Shown in pieces: positions 12,270 through 61,048 of a stretch of DNA of 64,000 nt. How positions within the stretch are numbered: the first letter of the stretch is position 1; each line of letters begins with the position of its first letter. A model generated the notes under the pieces. The model was given only the letters and a program-made list of their open reading frames with translations, made no database searches and had not been told where the DNA came from. Origin of the DNA: Spirochaetia bacterium (GTDB taxonomy: Bacteria > Spirochaetota > Spirochaetia > CADAEX01); contig OY759746.1 in the NCBI GenBank assembly GCA_963662795.1, positions 1,888,001 to 1,952,000 on the forward strand. The letters run 5' to 3'. The position numbers were made by a program, and so were the translations under genes.

Positions 12270-12463
12270 ATCTAACAGCGATTATTTCGCTGCGCTCCCT
12301 ATGGTCGCTTGGGCTCCTGCCAGTCGAACTGGCAGATCGCCATATTTTGTTTTCATAAAACTGAAACAACATGTATTTTATGCTTTTCAAGATTTAAAAA
12401 AAACTAAATAAAAGTATTTTATAGTTTAGCCACAAAACATCGAATAATCGCGGGACGTTATCC
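12270..12463 (+). repeat. attC-like site 6 (AGCGATTATT core)
   Basis: ATCTAAC...GTTATCC. Confidence 0.85.
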
Positions 12464-12581
12464 ACAATGCCCCCACAAGATGCGATCGCCCGGACCTCCG
12501 GCCGACGGGCGAGGATATGCAGTAGGAGTAATATACAGTATAATAGTATATGTTAGAAGAACCATTCGGGCAGAAGAAAAA

Positions 12582-13139
12582 ATGAAAAGAGGACAATTTT
12601 TTATATTGATTTTGTCAATATTACTTATTTCCTGCACAAAGATGGAAAACGATGTAATTCTATTAGTTCCATATAGTCAACAAGAAAAATTAATTAACTA
12701 TTTTACTAAAGCCAGTATTAAAGTAAAAATTGATAATTCTTTGATGACAATTTCTTCTCCTACTGATAATGTATTATTAAACCTTCTTGATTTTCTATTT
12801 ACCAATATATATTTGAATAAAAGTAATTTAAATAATTCAACTACCACAAGAACTCAAGATGGATCATATTATAAAAGAAAATATCTTGAAATACTTCCTA
12901 ATTTAAAATACATAATAAGGGATGATTTGAGTAGCCCAAAGGCAGTATATGACCCAACACATCCGGATGCAATTAAAGAAGGTAAAGACAAAGGATATGT
13001 ATATTATCCAAATATAAATATTGATGATGAGGAAAATGATCTTATCAATAATGTATTTTTATATAATTCAATTCTTGAATACTTAAAAAGTAGAAACATA
13101 CCAGTTATGTCTATAGAAATTGATCCAAATAATATATGA
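12582..13139 (+). CDS. Lipoprotein with FlgC-like C-terminal segment (nested cassette)
   Basis: Probable start MKRGQFF...LLISC lipobox; YDPTHPDAIKEG..GYVYYPNINI resembles the FlgC rod-protein motif. Confidence 0.7.
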   Translation: MKRGQFFILILSILLISCTKMENDVILLVPYSQQEKLINYFTKASIKVKIDNSLMTISSPTDNVLLNLLDFLFTNIYLNKSNLNNSTTTRTQDGSYYKRKYLEILPNLKYIIRDDLSSPKAVYDPTHPDAIKEGKDKGYVYYPNINIDDEENDLINNVFLYNSILEYLKSRNIPVMSIEIDPNNI

Positions 13140-13200
13140 CGAGTATCATAAATATTTCTGAAACTGATAGGAATTAATGTTTTTTCAAATACTAAAAGAC

Positions 13201-13319
13201 TTCTAACTACTTTTACCTGATGTTTTCTTTATCACATTTTGTACTGTCGCTTCGCTTCTGACGCACAAAATGCGCCAAGCCCTTCGGGCACGAAAATACA
13301 GATTAAGCAAATGTAAAAT
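13201..13319 (+). repeat. Degenerate inner attC (second family, ...CAGGTTAAGTAAATGTTA type)
   Basis: TTCTAAC matches the inner start GTTAGAA at 12552; the body resembles 30360-30478 and 60660-60779; R' decayed to GTAAAAT. Confidence 0.65.
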
Positions 13320-13405
13320 ACCAATTACTTAAACAAGGAAATAAGGGAAGAAGTCCGGCCTTGGCTTCCAGCCGTGCGGCCCGGACAAGAAGTGGGGGCA
13401 CTGGT

Positions 13406-13557
13406 GGATAACAGCGGATAATGCGCTACGCTCCCTGCGGTCGCTTGGGCTTCGCCATAAAGCTGTATTTTGTTCTGGTGCAATATGAAAACAACCAGAA
13501 AAGCTGTTTATTGAAAATGATTCGACAGCTTCATCGCTTATCCGCGGGACGTTATCG
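13406..13557 (+). repeat. attC-like site 7 (AGCGGATAA core)
   Basis: GGATAAC...TTATCCGCGGGAC-GTTATCG. Confidence 0.85.
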
Positions 13558-13652
13558 GCAATGGCTGGGCGAAGAGAACACCGCCCGGACCTCCGGCCCA
13601 CGGGCGAAGAAAATATTCAAACCAAAACAATTATTAAATTAAAGGAAGTAGA

Positions 13653-14063
13653 ATGATGATTAAGAATTATTATTATTTTGTAGTAGGATTACTTTCAATA
13701 CTTTTTGCGATTACACATGCACTAAATGGACAAGCTGTAATTTTACCTTCTCTTGAAATTGAATTAATAAGTATAGAAATTAAAACTATATTCTTTTATG
13801 TGTGGCATATAATATCAGCTGAAAACATTTTGTTTGGAATAACTTTTTTAATTATGGCATTTTATAAGAAACAGGGAAAAGTCAGATTTACAGCATTTGT
13901 TATAGCTGGTTTAATGGTTTTACGATGGATTGTAATATTTTATGGAACTTTTATGTATAATCGTTCAGGACTAGGTAATATTACAATCGATACTATCGCA
14001 ATTATAATATTTACTGCCCTTATTCTTCTGGGAACAAGAGTTAAAGATAAAATAAAATCTTAA
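13653..14063 (+). CDS. Four-TM membrane protein
   Basis: Four hydrophobic segments; paralogue at 51521-51917. Confidence 0.75.
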   Translation: MMIKNYYYFVVGLLSILFAITHALNGQAVILPSLEIELISIEIKTIFFYVWHIISAENILFGITFLIMAFYKKQGKVRFTAFVIAGLMVLRWIVIFYGTFMYNRSGLGNITIDTIAIIIFTALILLGTRVKDKIKS

Positions 14064-14132
14064 AAAACTGGATACGCAAGAGCTGAAAATAAATAGAGGT
14101 ATATTTATTATTATGTCAGAGAAGAGGATAAA

Positions 14133-14768: not shown

Positions 14769-14939
14769 CGATAACAGAGGATAATGCGCTTCGCTCCCTT
14801 TGGTCGCTTGGGCTTCGCCACACATCGTAGGTTTTGAATTACAACTTCTATAAAAAACAAGTTTTTGAAGCAAAATATTATAACTTCGAAATAATAATTC
14901 TTAGGCTCCGATGCGTCGCTTATCCTCAGGACGTTATAC
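14769..14939 (+). repeat. attC-like site 8 (AGAGGATAA core)
   Basis: CGATAAC...GTTATAC. Confidence 0.85.
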
Positions 14940-15009
14940 GTAATGGCCAGGCAAGAGAAAACCGCCCGGACCTCCGGCCGACGGGCGAGGATATGCAAAC
15001 TATTATTAA

Positions 15010-15525
15010 ATGAGGCTAAATATGCATGAATTATTATTAGAAATCATGATGGTTGAATATCAGAGAGAAATAGAGCGAAAAGCAAAACTTGAAGCTAAAG
15101 CTTTATCTTATGTAACGATTATTTCAATAATAATTTCTACTTCTCTAGTGTTAATGCTTTATTTTACATCTACATCTACATCTACATATACTGGTAAAAT
15201 AGTAAAAGTTTTATATTTTATAATGTTTTTGGGTGTTTTGGATTATTCAGTTTTTACAATAATATTTTCCTTAATCTCTATGAAAATGAGTAAAATGAAT
15301 ATTTTGGATATCAATGAAATAGAATTACTATGGAATAAAGATAAAGCTGATATTGAAGGGTCCGTTTTTAAAACAATAAAAAAAATAATTAAAGAAAATA
15401 GTGATTTTAATAAAAGAATAGAAAATAATAATGAGCTGTCATATATTTATTTATGGATAACAATGGTTTTTTATTTATTACAAATTGGATTTTCATTGCT
15501 TATAATTTTTGGAGGAATTAAATGA
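15010..15525 (+). CDS. Three-TM membrane protein
   Basis: Two N-terminal TM segments and one C-terminal TM segment. Confidence 0.7.
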   Translation: MRLNMHELLLEIMMVEYQREIERKAKLEAKALSYVTIISIIISTSLVLMLYFTSTSTSTYTGKIVKVLYFIMFLGVLDYSVFTIIFSLISMKMSKMNILDINEIELLWNKDKADIEGSVFKTIKKIIKENSDFNKRIENNNELSYIYLWITMVFYLLQIGFSLLIIFGGIK

Positions 15526-15677: not shown

Positions 15678-15842
15678 ATAATAATTGTTCTTGCATTTTG
15701 AATTAAAAAAGAATAGAAAGCGTTTAAAATATGAGCATTCAATATTTAATACCGCAAGATAGAATCATATTTTTAAAAATAATATGATGTATAAAACAAT
15801 TAAATTGCAGATATCATTAATAGATTATTATGTACCTGATAT

Positions 15843-29318: not shown

Positions 29319-29510
29319 GCATAACAGCGATTATTTCGCTGCGCTCCCTGTGGTCGCTTGGGCTCCTGCCAGTTGAGCTGGCAGATCGCCATATTTTGTA
29401 TTCATAAAACCGGAACAACATGTGTTTTGTGCTCTTCAAGTTTGTAAAAACCAAATAAAAGTATTTTAGAGTTTAGTCACAAAACATCGAATAATCGCGA
29501 GACGTTAGCA
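29319..29510 (+). repeat. attC-like site 15 (AGCGATTATT core)
   Basis: GCATAAC...GTTAGCA. Confidence 0.85.
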
Positions 29511-29604
29511 GCAATACGTCCCCAAGAGAACACCGCCCGGACCTCCGGCCCACGGGCGAAGAAAATAGTAACTGCTGTATAATATACTTTAAAAATAGAT
29601 ATAA

Positions 29605-29634
29605 ATAGTTTTCTAGTTATTTAATATGTTAGGA
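29605..29634 (+). other. Internal attI-like site (second copy)
   Basis: ATAGTTTTCTAGTTATTTAATATG|TTAGGA; similarity to 3896-3922 stops just after GTTA. Confidence 0.65.
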
Positions 29635-30365
29635 TGACTCTTAGGGTCAATGAAAATTATAAAATGAAAGACATAATAGAAATAACGAATAGTTTTAATA
29701 ACACTTTTACTGAATATGGCTGGATAGCAACAGATGATTTCTCTGTTTCAATTATGGAAAAGGCTTTAGAAACATATCGTAATAAAGGAATTGCTTCAGC
29801 CGAAGACTACTTTTGTTCAGTATTTAATGATCAATATTTTAGTACTTGTATACACCGAATGAAAGCAATATTGATTTTTAAGGGTAGAGAACGTCTGGTA
29901 GAATTTGCATATATTGATCATAAAGAAAAAAGATTTCATGCATCAATTCCTGTTGTACTAAGTCAAATTGATGGACTTGTTCATGATATTGCAAAACAAA
30001 GTTTCTATGAAAGATATGAGAGAACAAAAATATTTCAATATACAAGTAAGATTACAGGTTTAGTCTCGACCTTAGATAAAGTAGCTCAAAATATGAATCA
30101 ATGTAGAAAGCAAACAAATTTTACACCATTAAACTTTCCGTATCGAAATGGAATATTACACGGACGTGATATCAATTACGATTCAGAAATAGTATCTACA
30201 AAATGTTTTTTTAATTTATTTGCTCTTAGAACCTGGGGATTGTTTATACAAAATAATGAGTTCGATAAAATATTAAATCCAAAACAATATATTAAAATAC
30301 CTGGTTTCGTAGTTGGGGATAAAATGAAACTTTATATGGAAGAGGCATTTAAAGAAAAAGTTTAA
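29634..30365 (+). CDS. Hypothetical protein with HEPN-like RxxxxH motif (nested cassette)
   Basis: SQIDG...YRNGILHG. Confidence 0.6.
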   Translation: MTLRVNENYKMKDIIEITNSFNNTFTEYGWIATDDFSVSIMEKALETYRNKGIASAEDYFCSVFNDQYFSTCIHRMKAILIFKGRERLVEFAYIDHKEKRFHASIPVVLSQIDGLVHDIAKQSFYERYERTKIFQYTSKITGLVSTLDKVAQNMNQCRKQTNFTPLNFPYRNGILHGRDINYDSEIVSTKCFFNLFALRTWGLFIQNNEFDKILNPKQYIKIPGFVVGDKMKLYMEEAFKEKV

Positions 30366-30478
30366 CAACTGCTTAATTTTGATATTTTCTTTGTCGCATT
30401 TAGTGCAGTCGCTGCGCATACGCATAAAATGTAACAAGTTTTAAAAGTACTAAAATACAGGTTAAGTAAATGTTAGAA
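30360..30478 (+). repeat. Inner attC (second family)
   Basis: GTTTAAC...CAGGTTAAGTAAAT-GTTAGAA. Confidence 0.75.
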
Positions 30479-30504
30479 AGACGTTCCGTACAGGAAGGAA
30501 AGAG

Positions 30505-31104
30505 ATGGATCAAGTATTAATAATTATTTCTATAATAGGTGCAATAGTTACAGTAATTACATTCTCAGAAAAAATTACTAAAATTAAAAGTTTTCTGGTT
30601 AATTCATTTTCAAAAAAGAAAAATATTGAAATAAAAATAGTAAATAAAATGATTGAATACTATAATTTCTTTACCGAAAATATGGACAAAGAAAACTGTG
30701 AATTAAAATATTCAAAAATGGAAGATGAAATAGATTTTATTTTAAAAAATATTAAATACAAAATGGTTTTAAAATTTGATAACAAATTTATTGATAAATA
30801 TATGAAATATATAGGTTATAAAAAAGAATTTAGAACAACAGAAAATTTTTATAAATACAGTCATCTATATTTCAAAAATACAGACCTAATATTGGAATTA
30901 TCAAAAAGTACTTATAAAATTAAAATTGATAGATTAAATTTTCCATTAAAAGATATTTGGGGACAATTTCGAGCTAATCGTTTTATATTTTGTTCTCAAT
31001 ATAAAAAAAGGTGGGAAGGCGTACCTGAAATTGATAAAATATTTTTACAAGATATTGAAATGCCTATAAAATTATTAAAGATATACTATAATATAATTAT
31101 ATAA
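30505..31104 (+). CDS. Membrane-anchored hypothetical protein (nested cassette)
   Basis: N-terminal TM helix; GGAAGGA RBS. Confidence 0.7.
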   Translation: MDQVLIIISIIGAIVTVITFSEKITKIKSFLVNSFSKKKNIEIKIVNKMIEYYNFFTENMDKENCELKYSKMEDEIDFILKNIKYKMVLKFDNKFIDKYMKYIGYKKEFRTTENFYKYSHLYFKNTDLILELSKSTYKIKIDRLNFPLKDIWGQFRANRFIFCSQYKKRWEGVPEIDKIFLQDIEMPIKLLKIYYNIII

Positions 31105-31108
31105 GAAT

Positions 31109-31167
31109 TTTTAACAAATTGTTCAACTTGATTAGTCATTGCTTCATGAGTTAATAAAATGTTATAA
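31109..31167 (+). repeat. Short 59-bp canonical attC (inner)
   Basis: TTTTAAC-AAATTGT-TCAACT...AGTTA-ATAAAAT-GTTATAA. Confidence 0.65.
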
Positions 31168-31238
31168 AATTAAAATAGGGAAAGAAGTCCAGCCTTGGCT
31201 CCGCCGGGCGGCTTGGACAAGAAGCGGCTGGTACTGGA

Positions 31239-31410
31239 GCATAACAGCGGGTAAGAAACTGCGCTCGGAGTACCTCGCTTGGGCTTCGCCATATTTTGCT
31301 TTTAAACAACAAAAATAATTATTGTAATGTTCTTTTCAAGTTTTAAAAAAAGGACAAATGAGTATTATAGTTTTAACCGCAAAACATCTTTTACCCGCGG
31401 GACGTTCTCC
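31239..31410 (+). repeat. attC-like site 16 (AGCGGGTAA core)
   Basis: GCATAAC...TTACCCGCGGGAC-GTTCTCC. Confidence 0.85.
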
Positions 31411-32325: not shown

Positions 32326-32496
32326 CGAGAACAGAGGATAAAGCGCTTCGCTCCCTCTGGTCGCTTGGGCTTCGCCACACATCGTAGGTTTTGAACTACA
32401 ACATTTATAAACAACAAGTGTTGGAAGAAGAATATTGCAGCTTTGAAATATTCATTCTTAGGCTACGATGCGTCGCTTATCCTCGGGACGTTATAC
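32326..32496 (+). repeat. attC-like site 17 (AGAGGATAA core)
   Basis: CGAGAAC...GTTATAC. Confidence 0.85.
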
Positions 32497-32650
32497 GTAA
32501 TGGCCAGGCAAGAGAAAATCGCCCGGACCTCCGGCCGACGGGCGAGGATATGCAATATTGTAATATTTGCTATGTGTTATTATGAAGAAAAATAGTTTCA
32601 AAACGTACCTTATTGGTTCATAAAATAGAAAATGAACTATAAAAGTACAA

Positions 32651-32680
32651 TTGACAAAAATAGAACCGATAAGGTACAAT
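32651..32680 (+). promoter_or_regulatory. Putative sigma70 promoter (probably leaderless)
   Basis: TTGACA-18bp-TACAAT with the ATG 7 nt downstream. Confidence 0.55.
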
Positions 32681-32687
32681 ATAGATC

Positions 32688-33323
32688 ATGAATGTAATAG
32701 CAGTAATTGCGGATATAGTAGATTCAAAACATATTATTGATAGGAGGAGTTTTCAGCTCGATTTGGAAAAGAAATTAAACATAATTAATAAAAAATCGGC
32801 TAAAAGTATATTATCTCCTTATACAATTACAATAGGTGATGAATTTCAAGTTCTATATAATTCAACAGAAACTCTTTTCGATGATATATGGGATATTATT
32901 GAAAGTATCTTTCCATATAAATTGAGGGTTTCTATAGGATATGATAAAATATTAACCCGAACTAATAAGGAACGAGCAATAGGTATGGACGGACCAGCTT
33001 TTCATTACGCTCGAGATGGATTAGAACGGCTAAAGAAACAAAAAAGAACAGTGATTCAAGTATTTAGTGCTGAGATACCTTCAATCGAATTAATAAATAC
33101 AAGTTTGTTATTAGTCTTTGATCAGGTGGAAAAGTGGAAAGAAAATACACTAAAAATATTTGTAAACATGTTGAGAAAAGAAGATATGCAAACTATTGCA
33201 AAAAATATTGCTATTTCAGAGAGAGCCGTATATAAGAGCATAAAAGCAAATAATTTAAAAACAATAAAAGATCTAATTGAAGTGATCAAGAACCATATTA
33301 AAATAGGGATAGAAATGTTATGA
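32688..33323 (+). CDS. SatD-family protein
   Basis: AVIADIVDS, TITIGDEFQ, MDGPAFHYAR, C-terminal HTH. Confidence 0.8.
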   Translation: MNVIAVIADIVDSKHIIDRRSFQLDLEKKLNIINKKSAKSILSPYTITIGDEFQVLYNSTETLFDDIWDIIESIFPYKLRVSIGYDKILTRTNKERAIGMDGPAFHYARDGLERLKKQKRTVIQVFSAEIPSIELINTSLLLVFDQVEKWKENTLKIFVNMLRKEDMQTIAKNIAISERAVYKSIKANNLKTIKDLIEVIKNHIKIGIEML

Positions 33324-34090
33324 ACAGTGTATATTTTTATACATTAATAATTATCATGTCAGCAAGATGTATATTCCAAAATATTGAAAAACCAGTGTCT
33401 TTTAAAAAAAGCATATTTATACTTTTCGTAGAAGTAATTTTGGTAGTCCCATTATGGTCTTCAAGAATTATATTTTTACTTCTATTTTTGGTCGCTCTAA
33501 ATGGAGTTATACTCTGGTTAGAAAATACAAAGCTTAATATTCATTTATCGCGGTTTTTAAGTTTTACTATTTTCACTGTTTTTTTGGCATCAATAACTGG
33601 TAATAATTTGATTATTCACAATTTTAGCCCGATTGCTATAAAATTATTTCAAAAGCTTAGTGAAAATAATCTAATACTAAATTTTGTTAATAATTTTGGA
33701 TCTGAAAAAATATTTATTTATTTATCAGGGCTGTTAATTATTACAAATGAAGTAAATAATTTTGTACGCTATATTCTATACTTATTGAGAGTCGAGCCAA
33801 ATGGAAGTGGGGATTCTAGTCAGCAAAATGAATATGTTAAGCAAGAAAAAAATGAAGAGCTGAAACGTGGAAAAATTATAGGTATTATAGAACGAATATT
33901 AATATTTGTTTTTACTCTATCAAACAACTTTGCTGCAATTGGATTTATTCTTGCAGCAAAAGGTTTTACGCGATTCAAAGAATTGGATAATCGTAATTTC
34001 GCAGAATATGTATTAATAGGTACTCTTTTATCTACTTCAATTTCAATTTTAACAGGACTATTATTTAGTAGATTATTATTGCACATATAA
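33320..34090 (+). CDS. DUF3307-like membrane protein (SatD partner)
   Basis: GKIIGIIER..IF, AAKGFTRF, AEYVLIGTLLS. Confidence 0.75.
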   Translation: MNSVYFYTLIIIMSARCIFQNIEKPVSFKKSIFILFVEVILVVPLWSSRIIFLLLFLVALNGVILWLENTKLNIHLSRFLSFTIFTVFLASITGNNLIIHNFSPIAIKLFQKLSENNLILNFVNNFGSEKIFIYLSGLLIITNEVNNFVRYILYLLRVEPNGSGDSSQQNEYVKQEKNEELKRGKIIGIIERILIFVFTLSNNFAAIGFILAAKGFTRFKELDNRNFAEYVLIGTLLSTSISILTGLLFSRLLLHI

Positions 34091-34192
34091 ACATTTTATA
34101 AATAGTGACAATTGGGGCAATTATCTAACATTCGACATTTTAGTCCAGCCTTGGCTCCACCGTGCGGCCTGGACAAGAAGCCTGGCCACTAC

Positions 34193-34345
34193 GTATAACA
34201 GCGAATGACCGGTTCCGGCTGTTTCTAAGAAAGCAGCCTCCACCCAAATTGCCAAAATAATTCATATTAAGAATAATGGAATAAGGATAAACTTTTGGAG
34301 TGAGAAACATTATCGGCAACTTCGGTCATTCGCGGGACGTTATAA
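34193..34345 (+). repeat. attC-like site 18 (AGCGAATG core)
   Basis: GTATAAC...GTTATAA. Confidence 0.85.
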
Positions 34346-34440
34346 GCAATGTTCCCGCAAGAAGGGACCGCCCGGACCTCCGGCCGACGGGCGAGGATAT
34401 GCAATATAATAATATATGTTATGTATATTTAGGGGAAAAA

Positions 34441-35883
34441 ATGAGTTATATAAGAAATGAAATAATAGATGAAGAAATTAATAATCATTATAAACCGCCA
34501 ATAATTACTGCTTCTGCTCAATCATTGCCTTTCAATAATATTGGTGATCGCGGATTTGAAATATTGATATATCGAATATTTAAAAATACTGATTATTTTA
34601 AGAAACAAATTCAATATGATAGAGTTGAACTGATGGAAGGAACTGCTGATAGAGGTAGAGATGTATGCCTTATTGATGAGCATAATAAGGTAAAAGGTGT
34701 TATTCAATGTAAAAACTATCAAGAAAAAATTACTAAACCCAAATTAATTAAAGAGATATTAAAGTTTTTAATATTTATAATTATTTCTGATGAAGAATAT
34801 TCCCTTTCCAATTATTTTATTGTTTCTCCTTCTGGAATTAATTCAAAAGCTAAAGATCTGATTAGAAATTTTTGTCAAAATATCAAAGTTGAGCCAATTG
34901 AAAAATATTTTAATGATTTAAAGGAAGAGTTTTCTTCATTTGAAGATTTAATATATACCAATTTAAAAGAAAAAATTAATGAAATGCTTGAGACAATTTC
35001 TGTAACTGAAATCAATGGTATTGATTTGACAGAAATATTATATAAATATCCAGATAATTTGGAAAATCATTTCAAGGTAGTTAATGTAGTCTCTATTAAA
35101 AAAAATGAAGAAATGCTTGATAACAAATTGAGAGAATTTGGATTAAAAACTTTGACTGATAATGATCTTCAGTTAATTCAAAAAAGAATTGGATTTCTTC
35201 CTGAAAATAAAAGATTTAGATTTATGAACGTAGACTTTTATGGTTTACCAGAAAATCTAATTGTTAAAAATAAAAGTAAGATGATTCCAGTAATTGAAAA
35301 ATTGATAAAAGTACAAGGTGATTTATCAAAAATACTTTTAGATTATATTAATAATGAGATACATGATCAGATATTTAATAGAATAACATTACCATATCTG
35401 ACCACTGGGAAAGTACATCCATTTTCAGTACAAGTTGCAAGTCCGTATATATATAAACTATCTTCAACAGCTTTATTGTCTAAGCAAATTCCGATTGATT
35501 TAGCAAAAAAAATGTATTCCAAAATACTAGAAAATAGAGAAAAATTGATTGAAGAAATTGAGAGAGAAATATTTGAAGTAGCAAAGAAATCGTTTCAAAA
35601 TGATTATTCAACGTTGAAAGGTACAGAAGCTTTAATTAAATACAAAATTAATGTGTTGAAAACTCATTTATTAAAAGGATTCATAAATATTGAAGACGTA
35701 GAAATTCAATACAAAAAGGACAAAGAGACTATACTGCCTATTATGAATGAAATCTATGAATATATTTATGAATCAATAGTGTCTCCTTTAACAATTGTTC
35801 TTCATGAAATATCCGTTTGGGAAGAACCAGACTTTCTAAATAAGGTTGCATCGGATAATAAGAAATTAAAAGACAATACATAA
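34441..35883 (+). CDS. Mrr-like restriction-endonuclease-domain protein
   Basis: FE.LI, DRGRD, IQCKNY; start reassigned from 34300 (inside attC) to 34441, after an AGGGG RBS. Confidence 0.72.
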   Translation: MSYIRNEIIDEEINNHYKPPIITASAQSLPFNNIGDRGFEILIYRIFKNTDYFKKQIQYDRVELMEGTADRGRDVCLIDEHNKVKGVIQCKNYQEKITKPKLIKEILKFLIFIIISDEEYSLSNYFIVSPSGINSKAKDLIRNFCQNIKVEPIEKYFNDLKEEFSSFEDLIYTNLKEKINEMLETISVTEINGIDLTEILYKYPDNLENHFKVVNVVSIKKNEEMLDNKLREFGLKTLTDNDLQLIQKRIGFLPENKRFRFMNVDFYGLPENLIVKNKSKMIPVIEKLIKVQGDLSKILLDYINNEIHDQIFNRITLPYLTTGKVHPFSVQVASPYIYKLSSTALLSKQIPIDLAKKMYSKILENREKLIEEIEREIFEVAKKSFQNDYSTLKGTEALIKYKINVLKTHLLKGFINIEDVEIQYKKDKETILPIMNEIYEYIYESIVSPLTIVLHEISVWEEPDFLNKVASDNKKLKDNT

Positions 35884-35995
35884 CAATTACATTCAACTGA
35901 ATATTTTATTTGTACAGGTAGAGTAATTACCTGAAAGTTTGAGAAGTCCAGCCTTGGCTCCGCCGTACGGCTTGAACAAGAAGCGGGAACACTGC

Positions 35996-36187
35996 TTATA
36001 ACAGCGATTATTTCGCTGCGCTCCCTATGGTCGCTTGGGCTCCTGCCAGTTGAGCTGGCAGATCGCCATATTTTGTTTTCATTAAACCAGAATAATTATT
36101 GTTAGATTCTTTTCAAGTCTGAAAAAGTCAAATAAAAGTATTTTAGAGTTTAGTCCCAAAACATCGAATAATCGCGGGACGTTCTCC
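35996..36187 (+). repeat. attC-like site 19 (AGCGATTATT core)
   Basis: TTATAAC...GTTCTCC. Confidence 0.85.
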
Positions 36188-44853: not shown

Positions 44854-45044
44854 GGATAACAGCGATTATTTCGCTGCGCTCCCGATGGTCGCTTGGGCTC
44901 CTGCCAGTTGAACTGGCAGATCGCCATATTTTGTTTTCATAAAACCTTAACGACATGTGTTTTATGCTTTTCAAGTTTGAAAAACCAAATAAATGTATTT
45001 TAGAGTTTAGCCACAAAACATCGAATAATCGCGGGACGTTATCC
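44854..45044 (+). repeat. attC-like site 24 (AGCGATTATT core)
   Basis: GGATAAC...GTTATCC. Confidence 0.85.
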
Positions 45045-45169
45045 ACAATGCCCCCACAAGAGGAAATCGCCCGGACCTCCGGCCGACGGGCGAGGATGTA
45101 GTGCAATATGAAAAATGTACAGTATAATAATATATGTTAGGCGCAAATCATGTATCATGGAATACAATT

Positions 45170-46489
45170 TTAATGAAAAACAATACCATCTTTTTCTGAC
45201 AGTTTGAGGAGAATCACAGTGATGATTAGCCCAATGACTTCTGCAATTCCTACAGTAAACCAAATAATTGAATCTCCAAATAATACTGGTAATAGAGTGA
45301 TTGAAATAGGGGTTAGAACTAGAGATCTAATACAAACTGATATAACAGCATATTTTGTTCGTTTTGTGGAATAGAGATAAGTTGAAATCATCAAATTTAA
45401 TGAAAGAACAATATAAGCCCAGCTAAATTTGGGTAGTGCTTCAATTGTAATTTGAAGAAGGAAGTTGTCAGAATTAAAAAGTGGGATAATTTTGCTTTTA
45501 AAAGTTACCAACAATAGAAAAACTATTGCTGCACTTAGAAAGTTGATCAACATACCAGAATGGAAATAAAATTTGAGATCTTTTTCATTTTTACGACCAT
45601 AGCTTTGTCCGATTAATGGCTGCAACCCTTCAGATATTCCAAAGAAGATACCTATTGAAAATGATGTCAAAAAGGAAATAATTGAAAAAGCTGAAACAGC
45701 ATTATCACTAAGCGTTTTTATCAATATGTAATTCATACACAAAATTAACACTGGCATTCCAAATTGTGAGATCATTTCTGGCAACCCACGCATTAATACT
45801 TTTTTAAAGAGTAAAATTGATACAGAGAATCTTTTGATTCTCAAATTTCCCCGATTTAGGGCAAAATGGCTTAACAGAATTACAAGAGTACCAATTTGTC
45901 CCACCCCTGATGCAATAGCCGCTCCTTTGACTCCCATTTGCAAAGGAAATATGAATAGCCAATCTAGGGCAATATTCATTATGGTACCAATAATGACAGC
46001 AATGCTGACTAGTATCGGAGCGCCGTCATTCCGCACGAATCCTTGAAGGATTATAGAAATAATTGCTGGAAGGAAGAAAGCGCTGACAAAGAAAATGTAT
46101 TCGGATGTCATATCATGGAAAGTTTCGTTAGCGGCACTTAACGTTGCGATTTGATTGGAAAAGACCATACCCAGAATCATGATGATAACTGATATCATAA
46201 ATGATGCTGAAGTAGCGTGCATGAAAGCACTATTTGCCCCTTCAACATCGTTACGCCCAAGTCGTATTGCTGTAATGGTGATGCCGCCGATAGTCAACAG
46301 TATAGCAATGGCATTTGCCATAAGAGTGTATGGTAGTGCTAGGTTGACTGCACCTAAAGCAACGGCTCCAACACCGCGTCCAACAAAGATGCCGTCAACA
46401 ATGATATAAAGGAAAACAGAGCATGAACCAGCGACTGTAGGGATAATGTAACGGAACATGTTTCGAGTTCTAACGTTAATTTTCTTCAT
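45170..46489 (-). CDS. MATE-family efflux transporter
   Basis: IVDGIFVGRGVG, RNDGAP, NIALDWLFIF..GVKGAAIAS, GLQPLIG.SYG. Confidence 0.9.
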   Translation of the reverse strand: MKKINVRTRNMFRYIIPTVAGSCSVFLYIIVDGIFVGRGVGAVALGAVNLALPYTLMANAIAILLTIGGITITAIRLGRNDVEGANSAFMHATSASFMISVIIMILGMVFSNQIATLSAANETFHDMTSEYIFFVSAFFLPAIISIILQGFVRNDGAPILVSIAVIIGTIMNIALDWLFIFPLQMGVKGAAIASGVGQIGTLVILLSHFALNRGNLRIKRFSVSILLFKKVLMRGLPEMISQFGMPVLILCMNYILIKTLSDNAVSAFSIISFLTSFSIGIFFGISEGLQPLIGQSYGRKNEKDLKFYFHSGMLINFLSAAIVFLLLVTFKSKIIPLFNSDNFLLQITIEALPKFSWAYIVLSLNLMISTYLYSTKRTKYAVISVCIRSLVLTPISITLLPVLFGDSIIWFTVGIAEVIGLIITVILLKLSEKDGIVFH

Positions 46490-46491
46490 TT

Positions 46492-46947
46492 TTATTCTGC
46501 CTTACAAAGGATGGTTCTTGATTTTTCACGAAATATTTTCAAAAAATTCCGAAGAGATTGCAGCATTGCAATTCGATCTGCATCGCTCATTTCCATTAAA
46601 GTAGATTCTTCCAGTTGAAATATGATATCAAAGATTTTACTGGCAAAGATGCGACCGGATTCGGTCAATACGATTCTTTTACTCCGGTGGTCGCTTGTAG
46701 ATATCTCCAAAAAAATAAGTCTTTTCTTTATGAGTTCTTGCAGTGCGCTATTTACAGTTTGCTTGCTCATGGACCATTGGTCACATATATTTTTCTGACT
46801 GCAATAATCATCAGATTCATAGAGTGCATATAACACCCAATAACTACTGTCCGAGAGATTGCTTTGGCTTGCTAACTTTCTGTATATTGCGTCAGTCTCT
46901 TTCCAGAGAGAATTAAATTCATAAAGCTGGTCATGTAGTGTAGCCAT
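46492..46947 (-). CDS. MarR-family transcriptional regulator
   Basis: SQKNIC...SKQTVNSAL, DHRSKRIVLTESG. Confidence 0.88.
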   Translation of the reverse strand: MATLHDQLYEFNSLWKETDAIYRKLASQSNLSDSSYWVLYALYESDDYCSQKNICDQWSMSKQTVNSALQELIKKRLIFLEISTSDHRSKRIVLTESGRIFASKIFDIIFQLEESTLMEMSDADRIAMLQSLRNFLKIFREKSRTILCKAE

Positions 46948-46983
46948 ATATCCTCTTTGCCAATAATAGTCCGAAATAAGACC

Positions 46984-47012
46984 AATATAAAGACTTTTAT
47001 TTAACTAGTCAA
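46984..47012 (-). promoter_or_regulatory. Putative sigma70 promoter of marR-MATE
   Basis: Minus strand TTGACT-17bp-TATATT. Confidence 0.6.
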
Positions 47013-47094
47013 TAGGCAAATAAAAGAGAATAAAGAAAGTAAGTCCGGCCTTGGCTTCCCGCCGTGCGGCCTGGACAAGAAGTGGGGCACTGGT

Positions 47095-47266
47095 GGATAA
47101 CAGAGGATAAGGCGCTTCGCTCGGAATACCTCGCTTGGCCTGCGGCAAACATCGTAGATTTTGAACTACAATTGCTATAATTAACAATTTTTTGAAGAAA
47201 AATATTGCAACTTTGGAATATTCATTCTTGGGCTACGATGCGTCGCTTATCCTCGGGACGTTATCC
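47095..47266 (+). repeat. attC-like site 25 (AGAGGATAA core)
   Basis: GGATAAC...GTTATCC. Confidence 0.85.
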
Positions 47267-52384: not shown

Positions 52385-52555
52385 GGATAACAGAGGATAA
52401 TGCGCTTCGCTCCCTTTGGTCGCTTGGGCTTCGCCACACATCGTAGGTTTTGAAATGCAACATCAATAAACATCAGGTTTTAAAAGAAATAAATTACACC
52501 TTTATGTTATTCATTCTTGGGTTACGATGCGTCGCTTATCCTCGGGACGTTATTT
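52385..52555 (+). repeat. attC-like site 29 (AGAGGATAA core)
   Basis: GGATAAC...GTTATTT. Confidence 0.85.
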
Positions 52556-52776
52556 GCAATACCTTCGCGAAGAGAAAATCGCCCGGGCCCCTGGCCGACG
52601 GGCGAGGATGTGCAGGATAATAATGGTATATGTTGAATAGATACTTTAGGTGTGTGAAAACAGGTATTATCTAAATAAATACATAAAAGGCTTCTGATAG
52701 TTTAATGTGTTACCTGTTGATATAAACCAAAAAATGAACTATATTTAATAATATAATGGTTCATTTGGAGGTTTAT

Positions 52777-53031
52777 ATGAAATCTATTACCATACATGGA
52801 ATTGATAATGAACTAGATAAGAAAATTGCAGAAAAGTCTGTAGAATTTGGGTTAAGCCAGAACCGAACAGTTAAGCATATCCTGAAAAGTTCATTATTTA
52901 CTGATAAAAAAGTTTCTAAAAAGGATTCCTTTGCTGAGTTATTTGGTAAATGGTCAACAAAAGAGAAAGAAGAATTTGATAAAAAAATCAGTGATTTTGA
53001 AGTAATAAATGAAATGGACTGGAAAAAATGA
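52777..53031 (+). CDS. FitA-like ribbon-helix-helix antitoxin
   Basis: MKSITIHGID after a GGAGG RBS; overlaps vapC. Confidence 0.78.
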   Translation: MKSITIHGIDNELDKKIAEKSVEFGLSQNRTVKHILKSSLFTDKKVSKKDSFAELFGKWSTKEKEEFDKKISDFEVINEMDWKK

Positions 53032-53426
53032 CCAAGATATTACTTGATACAAATGCTTATAGTGAGTTTATGTCCGGAAACAAGTTGGTATTTGAATATA
53101 TTATAGAAGCAGAAATAATCTATGTATCAACCATAATGATCGGAGAACTGTTTGCAGGTTTTCAGGGCGGGAGAAAATATACAGAAAATAAAGAAGATTT
53201 TAAGAAATTCATCAGCAAAGATGGAATAAAAATATTGAATGTTACAATTGAAACATCAGAAATATTTGGAGAAATCAAGGCGGAACTAAGTAAAAAAGGA
53301 AAAATGATACCATTAAATGATATTTGGATTGCTGCTCATACAATAGAAACAGGTTCAAAATTAATCACATATGATTCACACTTTAAACAGATAAATGCTT
53401 TAAGAATTTGGGAAGAATATAAATAG
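53028..53426 (+). CDS. vapC: VapC PIN-domain toxin
   Basis: LLDTNAY, GEL..G, IPLNDIWIAA, LITYDSHF. Confidence 0.9.
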   Translation: MTKILLDTNAYSEFMSGNKLVFEYIIEAEIIYVSTIMIGELFAGFQGGRKYTENKEDFKKFISKDGIKILNVTIETSEIFGEIKAELSKKGKMIPLNDIWIAAHTIETGSKLITYDSHFKQINALRIWEEYK

Positions 53427-53557
53427 GGAAATTGTCCAATTACTGCTTCAATAGAGTCAACACTTTGCTTTTTATAGGTTAAGAAAGTATTAAAAAGAAA
53501 AGGAAGTCCAGACCTTGGCTCCGCCCTAACGGCCTGGACAAGACGCGAAGGTACTGC

Positions 53558-53730
53558 AAATAACAGAGGATAATTCGCTACGCTCGGAGTACCTCGCTTG
53601 GCCTTCGGCATATTTTGCTATCATTAAAACAGTTCATATTATGTTTTTACTCTATTTAAATATATTTCTTAAAAACTATCCTGTTGAAAAAGGTTTTAGC
53701 AAAACATCGCTTATCCTCAGGACGTTATTT
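53558..53730 (+). repeat. attC-like site 30 (AGAGGATAA core)
   Basis: AAATAAC...GTTATTT. Confidence 0.85.
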
Positions 53731-58594: not shown

Positions 58595-58767
58595 GGATAA
58601 CAGCGGTTAAAGCGCTACGCTCGGAGTACCTCGCTTGGCCTACGGCAAACATCGTAGGATTTTATCTACAGCTATTGGGAACATCAAGTTTTAAAAGAAA
58701 GAAATATTTAGATTTTTATTTATTATTCTTGGTCTACGATGCTTCGCTTAACCGCGGGACGTTATCC
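58595..58767 (+). repeat. attC-like site 34 (AGCGGTT core)
   Basis: GGATAAC...GTTATCC. Confidence 0.85.
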
Positions 58768-58855
58768 ACAATGCCCCCACGAGATACAATCGCCCGGACC
58801 TCCGGCCGACGGGCGAAGAGAATTGAATACCAATTGCACTACTAAACAAAGGTAA

Positions 58856-59761
58856 ATATATGAATGGATTAAATGGAAAAATATTTTATTCAAACACTTA
58901 GAGGACAATTCTTTTCCTGCTGTAAAAGAATTATATCATTATACAACAATTGAAAATTTCTGCAAAATTATTGAAAGTAAATCATTTTATGTTTTTAATT
59001 CTTATCATATGAATGATTATAAAGAAAACTATGTATTGATCGAAAAACTTAAGGAATATTTAAAAAATAGAAATGATATTCCAGAGGATTATCTGAATAA
59101 ACTTGATGAAACCATAAGGATAAAGTTTAGATTAAATACACCATATGTGTTTTGCTTAACTGAGTTAAATGATTCTTTATCACAATGGAGAGCTTATGGA
59201 AATGATGGTGAAGGAATTTGTTTTAAAATAGACAGTAAAAAGTTGGAAATGAAATATCGTTTGCCTTTTTCAGGCGTAGAAAAAGATAATAATTTATCAT
59301 TACACAATGTAATTTATAGTAATGAAGAGATTATAAATATCATTGAGGATATTCTCAATGAAAGTATTGAATTTTCAAAAACACGAGATGAAAATATTAA
59401 AAATATAGTCTTTGCTGAAAACGCATGTGCTTTAATGGTTAGATTTAGCCCAGTAGTAAAATTAAATGAATTTAGAGAAGAGAAAGAATGGAGAATTATT
59501 TACAATCCAGTTTGTATAAAAACCGACAGTATTCCATTTAATACTTTAGATAATAATAAAGACATTGGATTTGTTACAACAAATAACAATTTGAGATCTT
59601 ATTTTAAAATATCATTTACAAGTGATGAGTTTAAAGATATTATTTCTGCTATTTATATTGGTCCTAAAAGTAGAGTACACTATTATGAAATGCGAATATT
59701 ATTAGATATTAATGCATTAAAAAATACAGAAATATATCATTCAAAAATACCATATAGATAA
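58856..59761 (+). CDS. DUF2971-like protein (start uncertain)
   Basis: Frame is open from ATA at 58856 and includes LYHYTT...MNDYKE upstream of the called ATG at 59009; DSLSQWRAYG, FREEKEWR, IYIGP. Confidence 0.7.
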   Translation: MYEWIKWKNILFKHLEDNSFPAVKELYHYTTIENFCKIIESKSFYVFNSYHMNDYKENYVLIEKLKEYLKNRNDIPEDYLNKLDETIRIKFRLNTPYVFCLTELNDSLSQWRAYGNDGEGICFKIDSKKLEMKYRLPFSGVEKDNNLSLHNVIYSNEEIINIIEDILNESIEFSKTRDENIKNIVFAENACALMVRFSPVVKLNEFREEKEWRIIYNPVCIKTDSIPFNTLDNNKDIGFVTTNNNLRSYFKISFTSDEFKDIISAIYIGPKSRVHYYEMRILLDINALKNTEIYHSKIPYR

Positions 59762-59852
59762 TTATTTGTATAGGTAGAATAATTACCTGCCAGTTAAAAA
59801 AGTCCGGCCTTGGCTCCGCCGTGCGGCCTGGACAAGAAGTGGGGGCACTGGT

Positions 59853-60005
59853 GGATAACAGCGGTTAAAGCGCTTCGCTCGGATTACCTCGCTTGACCTT
59901 CGGTATAAAGGCGCAAAAAAAAATTGATAAGTTCTATGAAAGTAATTAAAACTTGTTGGTTTAAAATAAAAAACGCCTTCATCGCTTAACCGCGGGACGT
60001 TATAA
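59853..60005 (+). repeat. attC-like site 35 (AGCGGTT core)
   Basis: GGATAAC...GTTATAA. Confidence 0.85.
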
Positions 60006-60105
60006 GCAATGTTCCCGCAAGAGAAAACCGCCCGGACCTCCGGCCGACGGGCGAGGATATGCAGTATAATAATATAGACCCTACAGATGTGGAGAGATAT
60101 AGTAA

Positions 60106-60663
60106 TTGGTAAGAGTATTTATTGATAATAATGTTTGGGATATTTTTTATCAGTATTCTTTAGATTTAAATAGTGAGTTACCAATAAATGAATTTGATAT
60201 TATAATAACAAAAGAAGCGGAATTTGAAATTAAAGGAATGCCTGATAAGAAAAAGAAATATGCTGAATATCAAATAAAAAATCGTAATATAAGAACTGAT
60301 AAATTATTTGGATTTTTTAATGAGAATTATTTACTAAGTGAGCAACGAGTTGGTGGATATAGTACTTATGATAACAAGGTTGTTGGAGGAAGATTTATAA
60401 AAGATGATGAGTTTAAAATTATAAAAGAAGAAAGAAACGCATTAGGAAGTAAAAAGAAAAAAACGGGGCTTTATAATAATGAAGCAGATATAGCAATAGC
60501 TGCAAGATCATTAAATTCTATAGTATTGACTTGTGATAATAGAAAAGTACTTAAAAGAGCAAAAAATCGAAAAGGTTCAATGGTAATAGATTTAAGTGGA
60601 TTTAATAATACAATAACAATAAGGCAAATAATTTCTGAATTTATGAAAAAATATTTTAACTAA
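60106..60663 (+). CDS. PIN-like domain protein
   Basis: VFIDNNV, E..I, ADIAIAA, VLTCD. Confidence 0.62.
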   Translation: MVRVFIDNNVWDIFYQYSLDLNSELPINEFDIIITKEAEFEIKGMPDKKKKYAEYQIKNRNIRTDKLFGFFNENYLLSEQRVGGYSTYDNKVVGGRFIKDDEFKIIKEERNALGSKKKKTGLYNNEADIAIAARSLNSIVLTCDNRKVLKRAKNRKGSMVIDLSGFNNTITIRQIISEFMKKYFN

Positions 60664-60779
60664 AAACTATATCAACCTGACATTCTCTTTGACATGATTT
60701 GTGCTGTTGCTACACTCGTGACATACAAATCCTGCAAAGCCTTGCAGGCTAGGAAATGCAGGTTATCTAAATGTTAAAA
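60660..60779 (+). repeat. Degenerate inner attC (second family)
   Basis: CTAAAAACTATATCAACCTGA...CAGGTTATCTAAAT-GTTAAAA; resembles 13201-13319 and 30360-30478. Confidence 0.6.
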
Positions 60780-60874
60780 TTGTAAATTACAAATAATTAA
60801 ATAATTGTTTGAAAATGAAAGGAAGTCCGGCCTTGGCTCCGCCGTACGGCCTGGACAAGAAGCGGGAACACTGC

Positions 60875-61048
60875 TTATAACAGCGGTTCAAGCGCTTCGC
60901 TCGGAGTACCTCGCTTGGCCTACGGCAAACATCGTAGGATTTAAACAATAACTTTTTGAAACAACAAGTTTTTAAAAGACAATGAATAAAAGTATTGTGT
61001 TTACAATTCTTGATCTACGATGCTTCGCTTAACCGCGGGACGTTATAA
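60875..61048 (+). repeat. attC-like site 36 (AGCGGTT core)
   Basis: TTATAAC...GTTATAA. Confidence 0.85.

Follow-up and report, generated by a model that had tools for sequence, protein, structure and literature searches.

Two questions about integrons are open: how gene cassettes come about, and why the attC sites within a single chromosomal integron resemble one another so closely; PMC8352920 discusses an unidentified 'native mechanism of cassette genesis'. Both questions are touched by a cassette array in a Spirochaetia bacterium, part of which is covered by the window analysed here, a stretch of 64,000 nucleotides from position 1,888,001 to 1,952,000 of a single-contig genome of 3.93 Mb (G000:C1:1888001-1952000, the source of all window coordinates). 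An original prediction made from the letters of this window had proposed that foreign cassettes are captured inside host-type cassettes and locked there by loss of their inner attC sites, and that this is a route to homogeneous attC sets. We find that cassettes with canonical attC sites appear to have been captured at a distinct docking module behind the leader of some host cassettes, that several of their inner sites have decayed, and that such cassettes have been copied within the array as whole host cassettes. The array is probably organized in two tiers.

Host-type cassettes move as units with their own barcodes

The host-type array spans 330 kb (genome 1,847,9xx-2,180,706), about 8% of the chromosome, and holds 192 host-type sites, 37 of which lie in the window, on the + strand. 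To our knowledge, an array of this length and number of sites would rank among the largest cassette arrays. The G+C content is about 27-34% in the window, about 27% over the whole array and 39.7% in the genome. A GC-rich hairpin, CGCCCGGACCTCCGGCCGACGGGCG, marks the array, with 168 copies on the + strand at no more than 3 mismatches, 167 of them within 1.85-2.18 Mb, and 7 copies on the - strand. Every copy is part of an intergenic repeat of about 330 nt that opens with a tail hairpin (AGTCCGGCCTTGGC...GGAC) and a 20-nt arm, continues through R'' (..ATAAC), a 3-nt spacer, L'', a centre that varies, L', a 7-nt spacer and R' (GTTAT..), and closes with a second 20-nt arm and the leader hairpin. 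The host-type site is thus an attC-like palindrome of 134-182 nt with cassette-specific 20-nt arms and two GC hairpins; AAC-NNN-L'' and L'-N7-GTT could be placed in 187 of the 192 sites, with an R''-R' spacing of 134-182 nt.

The arms locate the crossover. The 20-nt stretch that follows the G of R' finds its reverse complement just before the AAC of the following site downstream. Among 124 informative cassettes, in which own-arm and same-site-arm matches can be told apart, the tail arm pairs over about 20 nt with the leader arm of its own cassette in 118 and with the arm of the same site in 1. Because the arms match within the cassette and not within the site, the host-type crossover lies at G|TT, and each cassette has therefore moved as a unit with its own 'barcode'. 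Arm mismatches that are C.A on the top strand are G.T on the bottom strand, and the bottom strand of the site is the more stable one in 155 of 187 cases (mean -24.9 versus -22.5 kcal/mol), an attC-like bias. In the features that we tested, the host-type sites therefore behave as attCs: a palindrome with R'' ...AAC and R' GTT..., L boxes and a bottom-strand bias.

Generic detection was of little use here. An Rfam search gave nothing at the gathering score and a permissive run gave one chance match to a snoRNA, the presence of an attC entry in the library being unchecked. Our own attC finder, which requires R-box pairing within a site, overlooks sites in arrays, where R' is part of the following cassette; prefiltering by L box was noisy, and a pure energy scan cannot tell AT-rich attCs from background, so that in the AT-rich window only the GC-richer sites stood out. 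These finders were replaced by family profiles and a test for terminal complementarity.

Several host sites depart from the common form. At 51414-51416 R' reads ATT instead of GTT, and the flanking cassettes are probably fused. The last site of the array, at genome 2,180,706, has no R'' and emerges from an apparent coding region; the arm that follows its GTT (GTTATGCTCAATACCAGCC) matches the tail arms of window cassette 29505-31404 and the CCAGCCG barcode class. A 624-nt host cassette without an evident gene, its leader GC-rich and atypical (GGCTGGGGGCGGGGGAGAGG...) where a hairpin is usual, is present at least three times (window 3173-3796; genome 1953478, 2144387 and others). Minus-strand open reading frames (ORFs) of 60-71 amino acids at window 7175-7390, 8911-9093 and 29239-29454 sit in the conserved centre of the longest, approximately 179-nt, class of host site (TCGCCATATTTTGTTTTCAT...) and are probably repeat artefacts.

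A docking module follows the leader hairpin of some host cassettes

In a subset of host cassettes the leader hairpin is followed directly by T3, a 75-nt module (AAGAAAATAGAATCTGCTGTATAATATACTTTATACATAAGATATATAGTTTTCTAGTTATTTAATATG|TT) terminating in ATATG|TT, or by T2, a short form of T3. T2 is the second leader type of the original prediction and is present as described there, with GTT at 12552, 34418 and 45136 and looser copies near 32576, 52631 and 60070. A pattern search of the whole array returned 28 T3 and 9 T2 leaders. Profile searches of all 192 leaders classed 31 as T3-like, 30 as T2-like and 131 as ordinary, the weakest T2-like leaders being matched at only 17-20 positions, some of which are hairpin bases common to all leaders. 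The motif recurs across the array (61 of 192 leaders by profile), and the point of entry proved to be a special module, not a generic host cassette; wrappers with the module, that is, the host cassettes around it, come from only a few barcode lineages. In this genome a T3 21-mer (up to 2 mismatches) occurs 25 times in forward and 0 times in reverse orientation, and a reversed-pattern control gave 0. In the window, GAGGATRT occurs 13 times, 12 of them on the + strand, where 3.4 copies are expected and 0 of 100 shuffles reach 13. T2 and T3 do not fold as attC.

Two other assignments were tried and dropped. T2 and T3 contain a perfect TATAAT, and a two-hexamer scan of 3780-4000 and 12440-12600 found no sigma-70-like promoter, -35-less promoters being beyond such a scan. 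In the commonest barcode class, a small AT-rich hairpin, TGTACAGGTAGAGTAATTACCTGACA (window 35906-35930, 57530-57555, 58720-58745 and many more), precedes the tail hairpin and often runs on as ...ACAGTT; as a mini-attC relic it was rejected, being confined to one wrapper lineage and having no R'' partner, and it was kept as part of the wrapper.

The module also occurs, sparsely, elsewhere. The host-type hairpin has 4 copies in a second genome of the same genus (G014) and 4, 15 and 7 copies in genomes of genus g3; none was detected in the remaining 15 family genomes. The host-type array of G011, from a sister genus, has one T3-like leader, and among 19 other family genomes the T3 21-mer occurs once, with 2 mismatches. 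The exact 21-mer is in no record of the species-representative collection, a scan from which the window's own genome is possibly missing, and in four metagenome contigs, the fourth of them unrelated. In two of these (L062 and L063) a host R', hairpin and T3 are followed by new cargo; a third (L065) begins inside T3, so that its upstream context is not visible, and carries new cargo as well. The leader of L063 is intermediate, a T2 prefix joined to the 3' half of T3, and it links T2 and T3 as forms of one module.

Canonical cassettes are inserted at the docking site

T2 and T3 leaders are conserved through ATATG and then diverge, the 29 leaders with an intact GTT continuing in 23 distinct 8-mers. 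The exact reverse complement of the docking 8-mer is present in the same host cassette for 14 of the 23, compared with 22 of 506 mismatched pairs, and within the last 200 nt before the tail hairpin for 11 of the 23, compared with 16 of 4111 mismatched pairs (0.4%). This complementary R'' ends in AAC, and a palindromic site leads from there to a new G|TT, behind which comes either a second guest or the wrapper text G|TTATACTGGAATATTTAGAAAAGAGGAAAAG or G|TTATAAAAA..AATAGAAACGGGGGAAG and then the tail hairpin. Two-guest chains could be traced by terminal matches. Cassettes have thus been inserted at the G|TT of T2 and T3, with first bases complementary to their own R''. Within one barcode class all T3 cargo starts differ (7/7, 10/10, 6/6 and 3/3), so the same wrapper received many different guests. 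Chimeric wrappers, in which leader and tail barcodes disagree, make up 4 of 30 T3 cassettes and 1 of 157 others (p = 0.0025), an excess that fits recombination at inner sites between wrappers.

The inner sites were identified with models built from other genomes. Three genomes of a sister genus (G010, G011 and G012) each encode an intact canonical IntI (384-400 bits) divergently flanked by attCs; these are about 106 nt long and have the form xxxxAACAATCAGTTGGAGCAG...ACAGCTCAACTGGGCGTTxxxx. A profile of 8 of these attCs found 8 matches in the present genome at E < 0.001 (best 1e-25), all on the + strand and in the array; among the weak matches, at E 0.2-0.7, are two outside the array and one on the - strand. 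In another family of the same class, G400 encodes a canonical IntI of 431 amino acids with ..KYPAAQYEWTWYWLFPS.., adjoining a 51-kb array with 41 attC sites of a related subfamily, an array in which neither the host-type hairpin nor T3 was found. The profile made from G400 only gave 18 matches here, again all on the + strand in the array, distributed as 0 of 131 ordinary, 3 of 30 T2-like and 13 of 31 T3-like cassettes. Our own iterated profiles gave 0 of 155 ordinary, 3 of 9 T2 and 19 of 28 T3 cassettes, and in a sensitive search of 180 3' regions all 23 matches at E < 0.01 fell in T2/T3 cassettes and none in ordinary ones. In the window, models made solely from foreign sites match at 7017-7086, 13191-13314, 30352-30483 and 60654-60776; genome-wide there are about 18 to 25 sites. 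Some of the T2/T3 cassettes without a model match hold attCs of other types, found by chaining. By these matches, the inner sites belong to the ordinary attC family of the IntI-type integrons of this class, present here only behind the docking module.

Because divergence sets in exactly at G|TT, complementarity exceeds chance and canonical attCs lie only behind T2/T3, the sequences argue that capture of guests at T2 and T3 is real. The guests and the canonical cassettes of G400 also resemble each other at the 5' end: the cassettes of G400 and many of the guests open after G|TT with a conserved leader, TTNNNNGGACSCTTCGSGCAGAGGA, which is a small GC hairpin followed by a Shine-Dalgarno-like run.

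Inner sites decay and the cassettes are copied whole

The clearest case of decay is the T2 cassette at 12458. The original prediction had called for a search for cargo homologues as free-standing cassettes with intact attCs, and the cargo at 12582-13139 has one: a homologue with 77% identity in G400, free between intact attCs (E = 1e-26 and 2e-36). The two DNAs are alignable exactly from the crossover, which reads ...CAGGTTAAGCAAATG|TTAGAAGGACCCTTCGGGCAGAGGAAAAAATG in G400 and ...CAGTATAATAGTATATG|TTAGAAGAACCATTCGGGCAGAAGAAAAAATG here (G|TTAGAAG). Compared with the intact orthologue, the local attC shows AACAACTGCTTCAACCTG changed to AACTACTTTTACCTG, CAGGTTAAG to CAGATTAAG and GTT to GT, with L' and L'' both mutated. 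The eroded R' that had been reported at 13201-13319 is accordingly confirmed: the site reaches E = 1e-21 when left out of its own model and 2.7e-12 with the profile from G400 only, R'' (CTTCTAAC at 13200-13207) is complementary to the leader G|TTAGAAG at 12552, and R' is down to GT at 13313-13314. For this site, then, the original prediction survives its own refuting test. The gene itself starts at 12582, the ORF list placing the start inside a hairpin.

Comparable lesions occur throughout the array. At docking sites, the G of GTT is replaced by A in the T3 leaders at 1887637, 2064698 and 2110033, other changes are found at 1964791 and 2008444, and GTT is lost from the T2 leader at 60054. At inner sites, R' is reduced to GT (13313), ATT (genome 2093923) or GGT (cassette 2163488), and a GTATT together with a central deletion is found at 53435-53497 and in its siblings; this remnant was read by eye, and the profile score for the sibling copies, E = 0.43, is not significant. 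All 3 T2 cassettes with model-detectable inner sites (3 of 9) carry a lesion; in T3 cassettes such sites are detectable in 19 of 28.

Three of the wrappers have second copies between different neighbours. That of 12458 lies at 1851301 (1044 identical columns of 1094 / 1133), that of 45039 at genome 1986103 (2217 of 2222 columns identical) and that of 52550 at 2100499 (1175 of 1175). Near-identity between different neighbours implies that the wrappers were copied as whole host cassettes. Locking is therefore real: host cassettes whose inner sites are eroded or absent have reached further positions in the array by copying. For a handful of cassettes, independent evidence supports the whole sequence of capture, decay and locking. 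The decay looks like ordinary neutral erosion of orphaned sites and not like a conversion pathway, because the canonical intI of this genome is a pseudogene (see below).

The proposed decay series fared unevenly. Of the four inner attCs said to be intact, 7027 scores E = 4e-6 and 30360 E = 4e-10, and 5629 has a fold z of -1.8; 31109 is a short site, homologous to a second short inner site, with a fold z of +1.4. An eroded R'' at 60660-60779 was a misreading: the site has TTTTAAC and an intact R' GTTAAAA, its z is -3.3, and it is the GTT of the leader that is missing. The matching cores at 34418 and 35876-35884 are real and unlikely by chance (16/4111 = 0.4%). All models run confirmed the absence of an inner site from the cassettes after 32490 and 45038 (32491 and 45039), in which we see no evidence that an inner site was ever present. 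Capture followed by loss of the inner attC thus holds for a few cassettes, through the orthologue, the GTT lesions and the copies, and the two final stages are traceless.

For these late-stage cassettes (32491, 45039 and perhaps 34340) one might suppose that T2 is a mere leader variant, that they never held guests and that the series lines up unrelated states. None of the three has inner attC homology. Cassette 45039 has no complementary R'' and carries its genes on the opposite strand with their own regulator; 32491 lies outside that count, and none was found in it by eye. The cargo of 34340 has no close homologue in the 400 other genomes searched (query 34300-35883, none at E <= 1e-40), and in the 70 nt after its R''-like match there is no attC homology (E = 0.7) and no fold (z = -0.7). 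Against this supposition, 34340 has a 9-nt terminal match at the expected place, ATACATAAC at 35876-35884 being complementary to G|TTATGTAT (null 0.4%), the cargo of 45039 starts with TTAGGCG as do several guests (TTAGGCGGACGC at genome 2090144 and 2173782), and canonical attCs are confined to T2/T3 leaders. We regard it as very improbable.

A much broader claim is that capture and loss of inner attCs is the general route to homogeneous attC sets, most ordinary cassettes being former captures. Leaders do form a graded series, from full T3 through the L063 intermediate and T2 to prefixes of 17-20 nt; inner sites are found in several states of decay; and locked wrappers are copied as units. In cassette 2163488 the T2-like leader lacks GTT, a short attC remnant reads GGT, and the cargo shares 54% identity with a cassette gene of G400; the cargoes of 2033421 and 2059804, which have no T2/T3 leader, are 57-60% identical to G400 cassette genes, boundary homology not being seen in either. 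What speaks against generality is that 131 of the 192 cassettes bear no trace of T2/T3 and 0 of these 131 has a canonical attC match, the ordinary cassettes remaining empty even in the sensitive search of 180 regions; that the low end of the leader series includes shared hairpin bases; and that docking wrappers are limited to few lineages. The claim also presupposes host wrappers and is silent on their origin, and the decay, found alongside a canonical intI that is dead, may be a peculiarity of this genome. A general route remains a hypothesis, and one that we consider unlikely.

Recombinases and resemblance to attI

Two recombinase genes bear on how the two kinds of cassette move. A tyrosine recombinase of 339 amino acids (genome 1846782-1847801; L004:1294-2313) is co-oriented with the cassettes, and the array begins about 150 nt past its stop codon. 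It scores 200 bits against TIGR02249 (cut-off 265) and best as an XerA-like protein (214.5 bits, cut-off 220), and is 33% identical to the canonical IntI of the sister genus. Aligned to the G011 IntI it lacks about 40 amino acids, covering ...KYPNAGKEWGWFWVFPS..., the IntI-specific domain; the host tier therefore has no adjacent integrase with the additional domain by which integrons are recognized. The canonical intI of this genome, at 412035-413302 (412 kb), is a pseudogene with a frameshift and stop codons, adjoins an rRNA operon and lies far from the host array, with no array beside it. The enzyme that moves host cassettes is possibly the neighbouring Xer-like recombinase.

The docking module resembles attI at its end. 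The last 12 nt of T2 match the attI of G011 at a median of 11 of 12 positions (null 8.7e-4 of 4610 other GTT-ending array 12-mers) and those of T3 at 10 of 12 (null 0.013). When the last 12 nt of the G400 attI were searched with at most one mismatch, the only match in the window was ATGGTATATGTT, on the T2-like docking site at 52623-52634. This is suggestive of a descent of T2 and T3 from attI. T3 as the attI of the 412-kb intI pseudogene was discarded: a by-eye identity of 9 nt is unsupported, and the T3 profile has no match there or at the relatives' intI genes.

The same resemblance is what would be expected had there been wrapping and no capture, with a canonical attI and its first cassettes packaged once or a few times as host cargo and T2/T3 being the imported attI. 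The likeness over the last 12-16 nt of T2, the sole window match of the G400 12-mer and the absence of an array adjoining the 412-kb intI are in keeping with it, and internal delta-attI sites are documented for arrays of mobile integrons (PMC12901181). But the all-different cargo of each wrapper lineage (7/7, 10/10, 6/6) needs later turnover or equally many wrappings with identical ends, and the enrichment of chimeric wrappers in T3 (p = 0.0025) points to recombination at inner sites within the array. As the whole story, wrapping is decidedly unlikely; it is compatible, as the origin of the first wrapper, with a two-tier array.

A probable two-tier array

We consider it probable that the array has two tiers, in which canonical cassettes are docked in the T2/T3 modules of host cassettes and their inner sites are decaying. 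The first tier consists of host cassettes bounded by long attC-like sites, recombining at G|TT and carrying matching 20-nt barcodes and GC hairpins. The second comprises about 30 host cassettes with T3 and about 9 to 30 more with T2, from few barcode lineages, whose docking G|TT would act as an attI-like (delta-attI) or half-attC site. Ordinary integron cassettes, drawn from the pool of the canonical IntI integrons of sister genera and another family, would have been inserted there, one or two in a row, with wrapper text and tail resuming after the last R'. An IntI-type integrase would have made the insertions, T2 and T3 would derive from attI, and decay would be neutral: with intI dead, the orphaned inner sites would accumulate point mutations and deletions, and a guest without GTT would move only as part of its whole host cassette, as copied within the array.

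A number of observations weigh against this organization. The sole intact recombinase adjoining the array scores below the cut-off for IntI and has no IntI insertion. No model match is found in 9 of 28 T3 and 6 of 9 T2 cassettes, and 9 of the 23 distinct docking 8-mers have no complementary R'' in their own cassette; the first guest of cassette 29505 mismatches its docking 8-mer. Bottom-strand folds compared with shuffles give z = -1.8 (5629), -2.0 (13199) and -3.3 (60655), and +1.4 and -0.7 for the short site 31109 and the region 35876, which fold no better than shuffles. Profiles of T2 and T3 miss the attI sites of G400 and G010-G012, their best scores (E = 1.2 to 2.4) lying elsewhere, and the likeness to attI rests on 12-16 AT-rich bases, with 8 comparisons made. 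Neither this genome nor 20 family genomes nor the collection scans yielded a wrapper whose docking site stands empty. Finally, the G+C content of guest cargo is 0.279 and that of ordinary cargo 0.271 (p = 0.56). These values rule out guests that are compositionally foreign, the whole array (about 27%) departing from the genome (39.7%); 'foreign' refers to the site family of the guests and not to the composition of their genes.

The two-tier organization may also be read more boldly. A few host cassettes would be portable, integrase-less mini-integron platforms that recruit canonical cassettes from other lineages; a second system, with 330-nt composite barcoded sites and possibly an Xer-like recombinase, would shuffle the mini-arrays; and decay of inner sites would move genes between cassette 'currencies'. 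We offer this as a tentative proposal, somewhat more doubtful than probable.

Cassettes and cargo of the window

The cassettes with docking modules and the host sites of the window are collected in Table 1. Cargo of the array is rich in defence-type genes (window 10427-12223, 18703-20887, 21246-29244, 31653-32272, 34441-35883 and 40834-42753), among them an OLD-like AAA_15/TOPRIM protein, two TIR-domain proteins, Eco57I-type and BsuBI/PstI restriction-modification genes, a HATPase_c_3 protein, PIN/Phd pairs, an Mrr-like protein and a ResIII helicase. Host cassette 14934-17387 contains a DDE_Tnp_1 transposase gene (an insertion sequence element) at 15942-17099.

Table 1 Host-type sites, docking modules and nested guests in the window. 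Coordinates are window positions; end matches are given with their length.
Feature	Position	Strand	Details
Host-type sites (G of R')	3172, 3796, 7440, 9143, 10367, 12457, 13551, 14933, 17387, 18600, 19846, 21110, 24498, 27319, 29504, 31404, 32490, 34339, 36181, 38705, 40704, 43035, 43991, 45038, 47260, 48622, 49755, 51416, 52549, 53724, 54953, 56514, 57564, 58761, 59999, 61042, 62709	+	51416 is the ATT variant
T3 host cassette, 3' part	1..3172	+	Arm class CCACAATATCATCGC; docking site ATT not GTT, before the window; gene 36-2774; inner R' GTTATAA 2927-2933, then recurrent wrapper text AAAAATAGAAACGGGGGAAG; tail hairpin 2957-2993
T3 host cassette, two nested canonical cassettes	3797..7440	+	Arm class ATGCAATACGACCCC; leader hairpin 3826-3850; T3 3851-3921; docking G 3919; wrapper resumes 7175; tail hairpin 7204-7240; host attC 7255-7446; end matches G|TTATGAG with CTCATAAC (10 nt) and G|TTATGTT with AACATAAC (9 nt)
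Guest 1 of cassette 3797	3920-5755		ORFs 3991-5259, 5271-5621; attC 5629-5761 (133 nt, bottom strand -21.8 kcal/mol, z = -1.8)
Guest 2 of cassette 3797	5756-7174		ORF 5827-7032, VRR-NUC domain (Pfam); attC 7027-7180 (154 nt; E = 4e-6, model solely from attCs of relatives' canonical integrons)
T2 host cassette, one locked guest	12458..13551	+	Leader hairpin 12487-12511; T2 12512-12554; docking GTT, G 12552; gene 12582-13139 (lipoprotein-like); eroded attC 13200-13319; tail hairpin 13352-13390; host attC 13406-13557
T3 host cassette, chimeric	29505..31404	+	Leader and tail arms mismatch (own-arm score 3); docking G 29628; tail hairpin 31186-31222
First guest of cassette 29505			ORF 29634-30365; attC 30360-30478, R' G 30472 (E = 4e-10, G400-only model)
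Second guest of cassette 29505			ORF 30505-31104; short attC 31109-31167 (R'' TTTTAAC, R' GTTATAA; homologous to a second short inner site)
Host cassette, degenerate T2-like leader	32491..34339	+	Looser T2 copy 32545-32578, GTT 32576 (T2 model E = 9e-5, first 20 positions only); SatD-like gene 32688-33323; gene 33320-34090; no inner site
T2 host cassette	34340..36181	+	T2 34394-34420; docking G 34418; gene 34441-35883 (Mrr-like); small hairpin ~35906-35930; tail hairpin from 35945
T2 host cassette	45039..47260	+	T2 45093-45138; docking G 45136; genes on opposite strand, MatE 45170-46489 and MarR 46492-46947; no inner site
Host cassette, T2-like leader	52550..53724	+	Looser T2 copy 52605-52634, G 52632 (T2 profile E = 7e-5); PIN toxin-antitoxin pair 52756-53426; heavily eroded attC remnant ~53435-53497, ACTGCTTCA retained, centre deleted, AGGTTAAGAAAGTATTAAAAAG replacing ...AAATGTTAGAAAG
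T2 host cassette, docking GTT lost	60000..61042	+	Looser T2 copy 60054-60076, no GTT, leader ending ...TATAGACC; gene 60106-60663; inner attC 60654-60779, TTTTAAC 60654-60660, R' GTTAAAA 60773-60779 (E = 1e-31, and 1.6e-10 G400-only; z = -3.3, 0/200 shuffles fold as well)
T3 host cassette running past window end	62710..64000	+	Docking G 62830; gene 62924-63883 (RES domain); inner attC starts beyond window, ~64088-64245; G|TTAAAAA matches TTTTTAAC (9 nt)

Relation to known systems

In its general layout the array resembles a Vibrio superintegron or a cluster of attC sites lacking an integron-integrase (CALIN): it is long and co-oriented, consists mostly of one- or two-gene cassettes, and has homogeneous palindromic ...AAC / GTT... 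sites with a crossover at G|TT and a better-folding bottom strand. Its cargo is likewise rich in defence and toxin-antitoxin genes (compare bioRxiv 10.1101/2024.07.02.601686). Unlike in those arrays, however, the unit here is about 330 nt and combines a site of 134-182 nt with 20-nt arms that pair across the crossover and two GC hairpins; the recombinase points the same way as the cassettes and has no IntI-specific domain; and a second, canonical attC family is nested inside cassettes, not interspersed between them.

The closest known counterpart of the docking site would be the delta-attI remnants inside class 1 and 2 integron arrays. Delta-attI cassettes of class 1 and 2 mobile integrons carry attI-derived sequences (...AAAG|TTRRRY or ...AAATG|TTRRRY) inside arrays, and these sites are functional recombination partners of IntI (PMC12901181). 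T2 and T3 are similar: their end reads ...ATATG|TTA, and cassettes with canonical attCs come next. In mobile integrons there is a single tier, and delta-attI takes the place of attC at a cassette's 3' end; here, by contrast, the site is at the 5' end within a cassette of another site family, which becomes the carrier of a mini-array, and an attI derivation is only suggested, over 12-16 nt.

Two further phenomena are related. Fused gene cassettes arise by partial or total loss of attC, according to PMC4670013. The loss of an internal attC that joins co-moving units is what the original prediction called locking, but the known cases lie within one tier and in mobile integrons, whereas here the outer sites are of another family and the guest changes family. 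Partridge et al. reportedly described fused cassettes through attC loss in 2009. Recchia and Hall are likewise said to have reported cassette insertion at secondary sites in 1995. Such insertion at secondary or genomic sites, termed attG, is dealt with in bioRxiv 10.1101/2022.09.11.507474. The likeness is that IntI can use a simple G|TT site outside attI and attC and that such insertions are hard to reverse; the difference is that here the same site has been used in about 30 cassettes, including two-guest chains, as a preferred docking site and not an accidental target. In the literature outside subscription journals we found no description of one attC family's cassettes sitting at such a site within cassettes of a second family.

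Implications

Within one genome, intermediates can be seen side by side: a docking site, guests with intact sites, single-base lesions of GTT, and locked guests of which copies exist. The intact original of one guest is present in the integron of another family. Genes can thus pass between attC families without a new site being built, though this is not necessarily the main route. The array also raises a question for the bench, namely whether a recombinase that lacks the IntI domain can move composite sites that follow attC rules, or whether this takes a canonical IntI acting in trans. Arrays of this kind would be mis-segmented by annotation pipelines built on one attC family per array. If the reading of docking wrappers as portable platforms is true, it would provide a concrete way for a chromosomal array to naturalize foreign cassettes.

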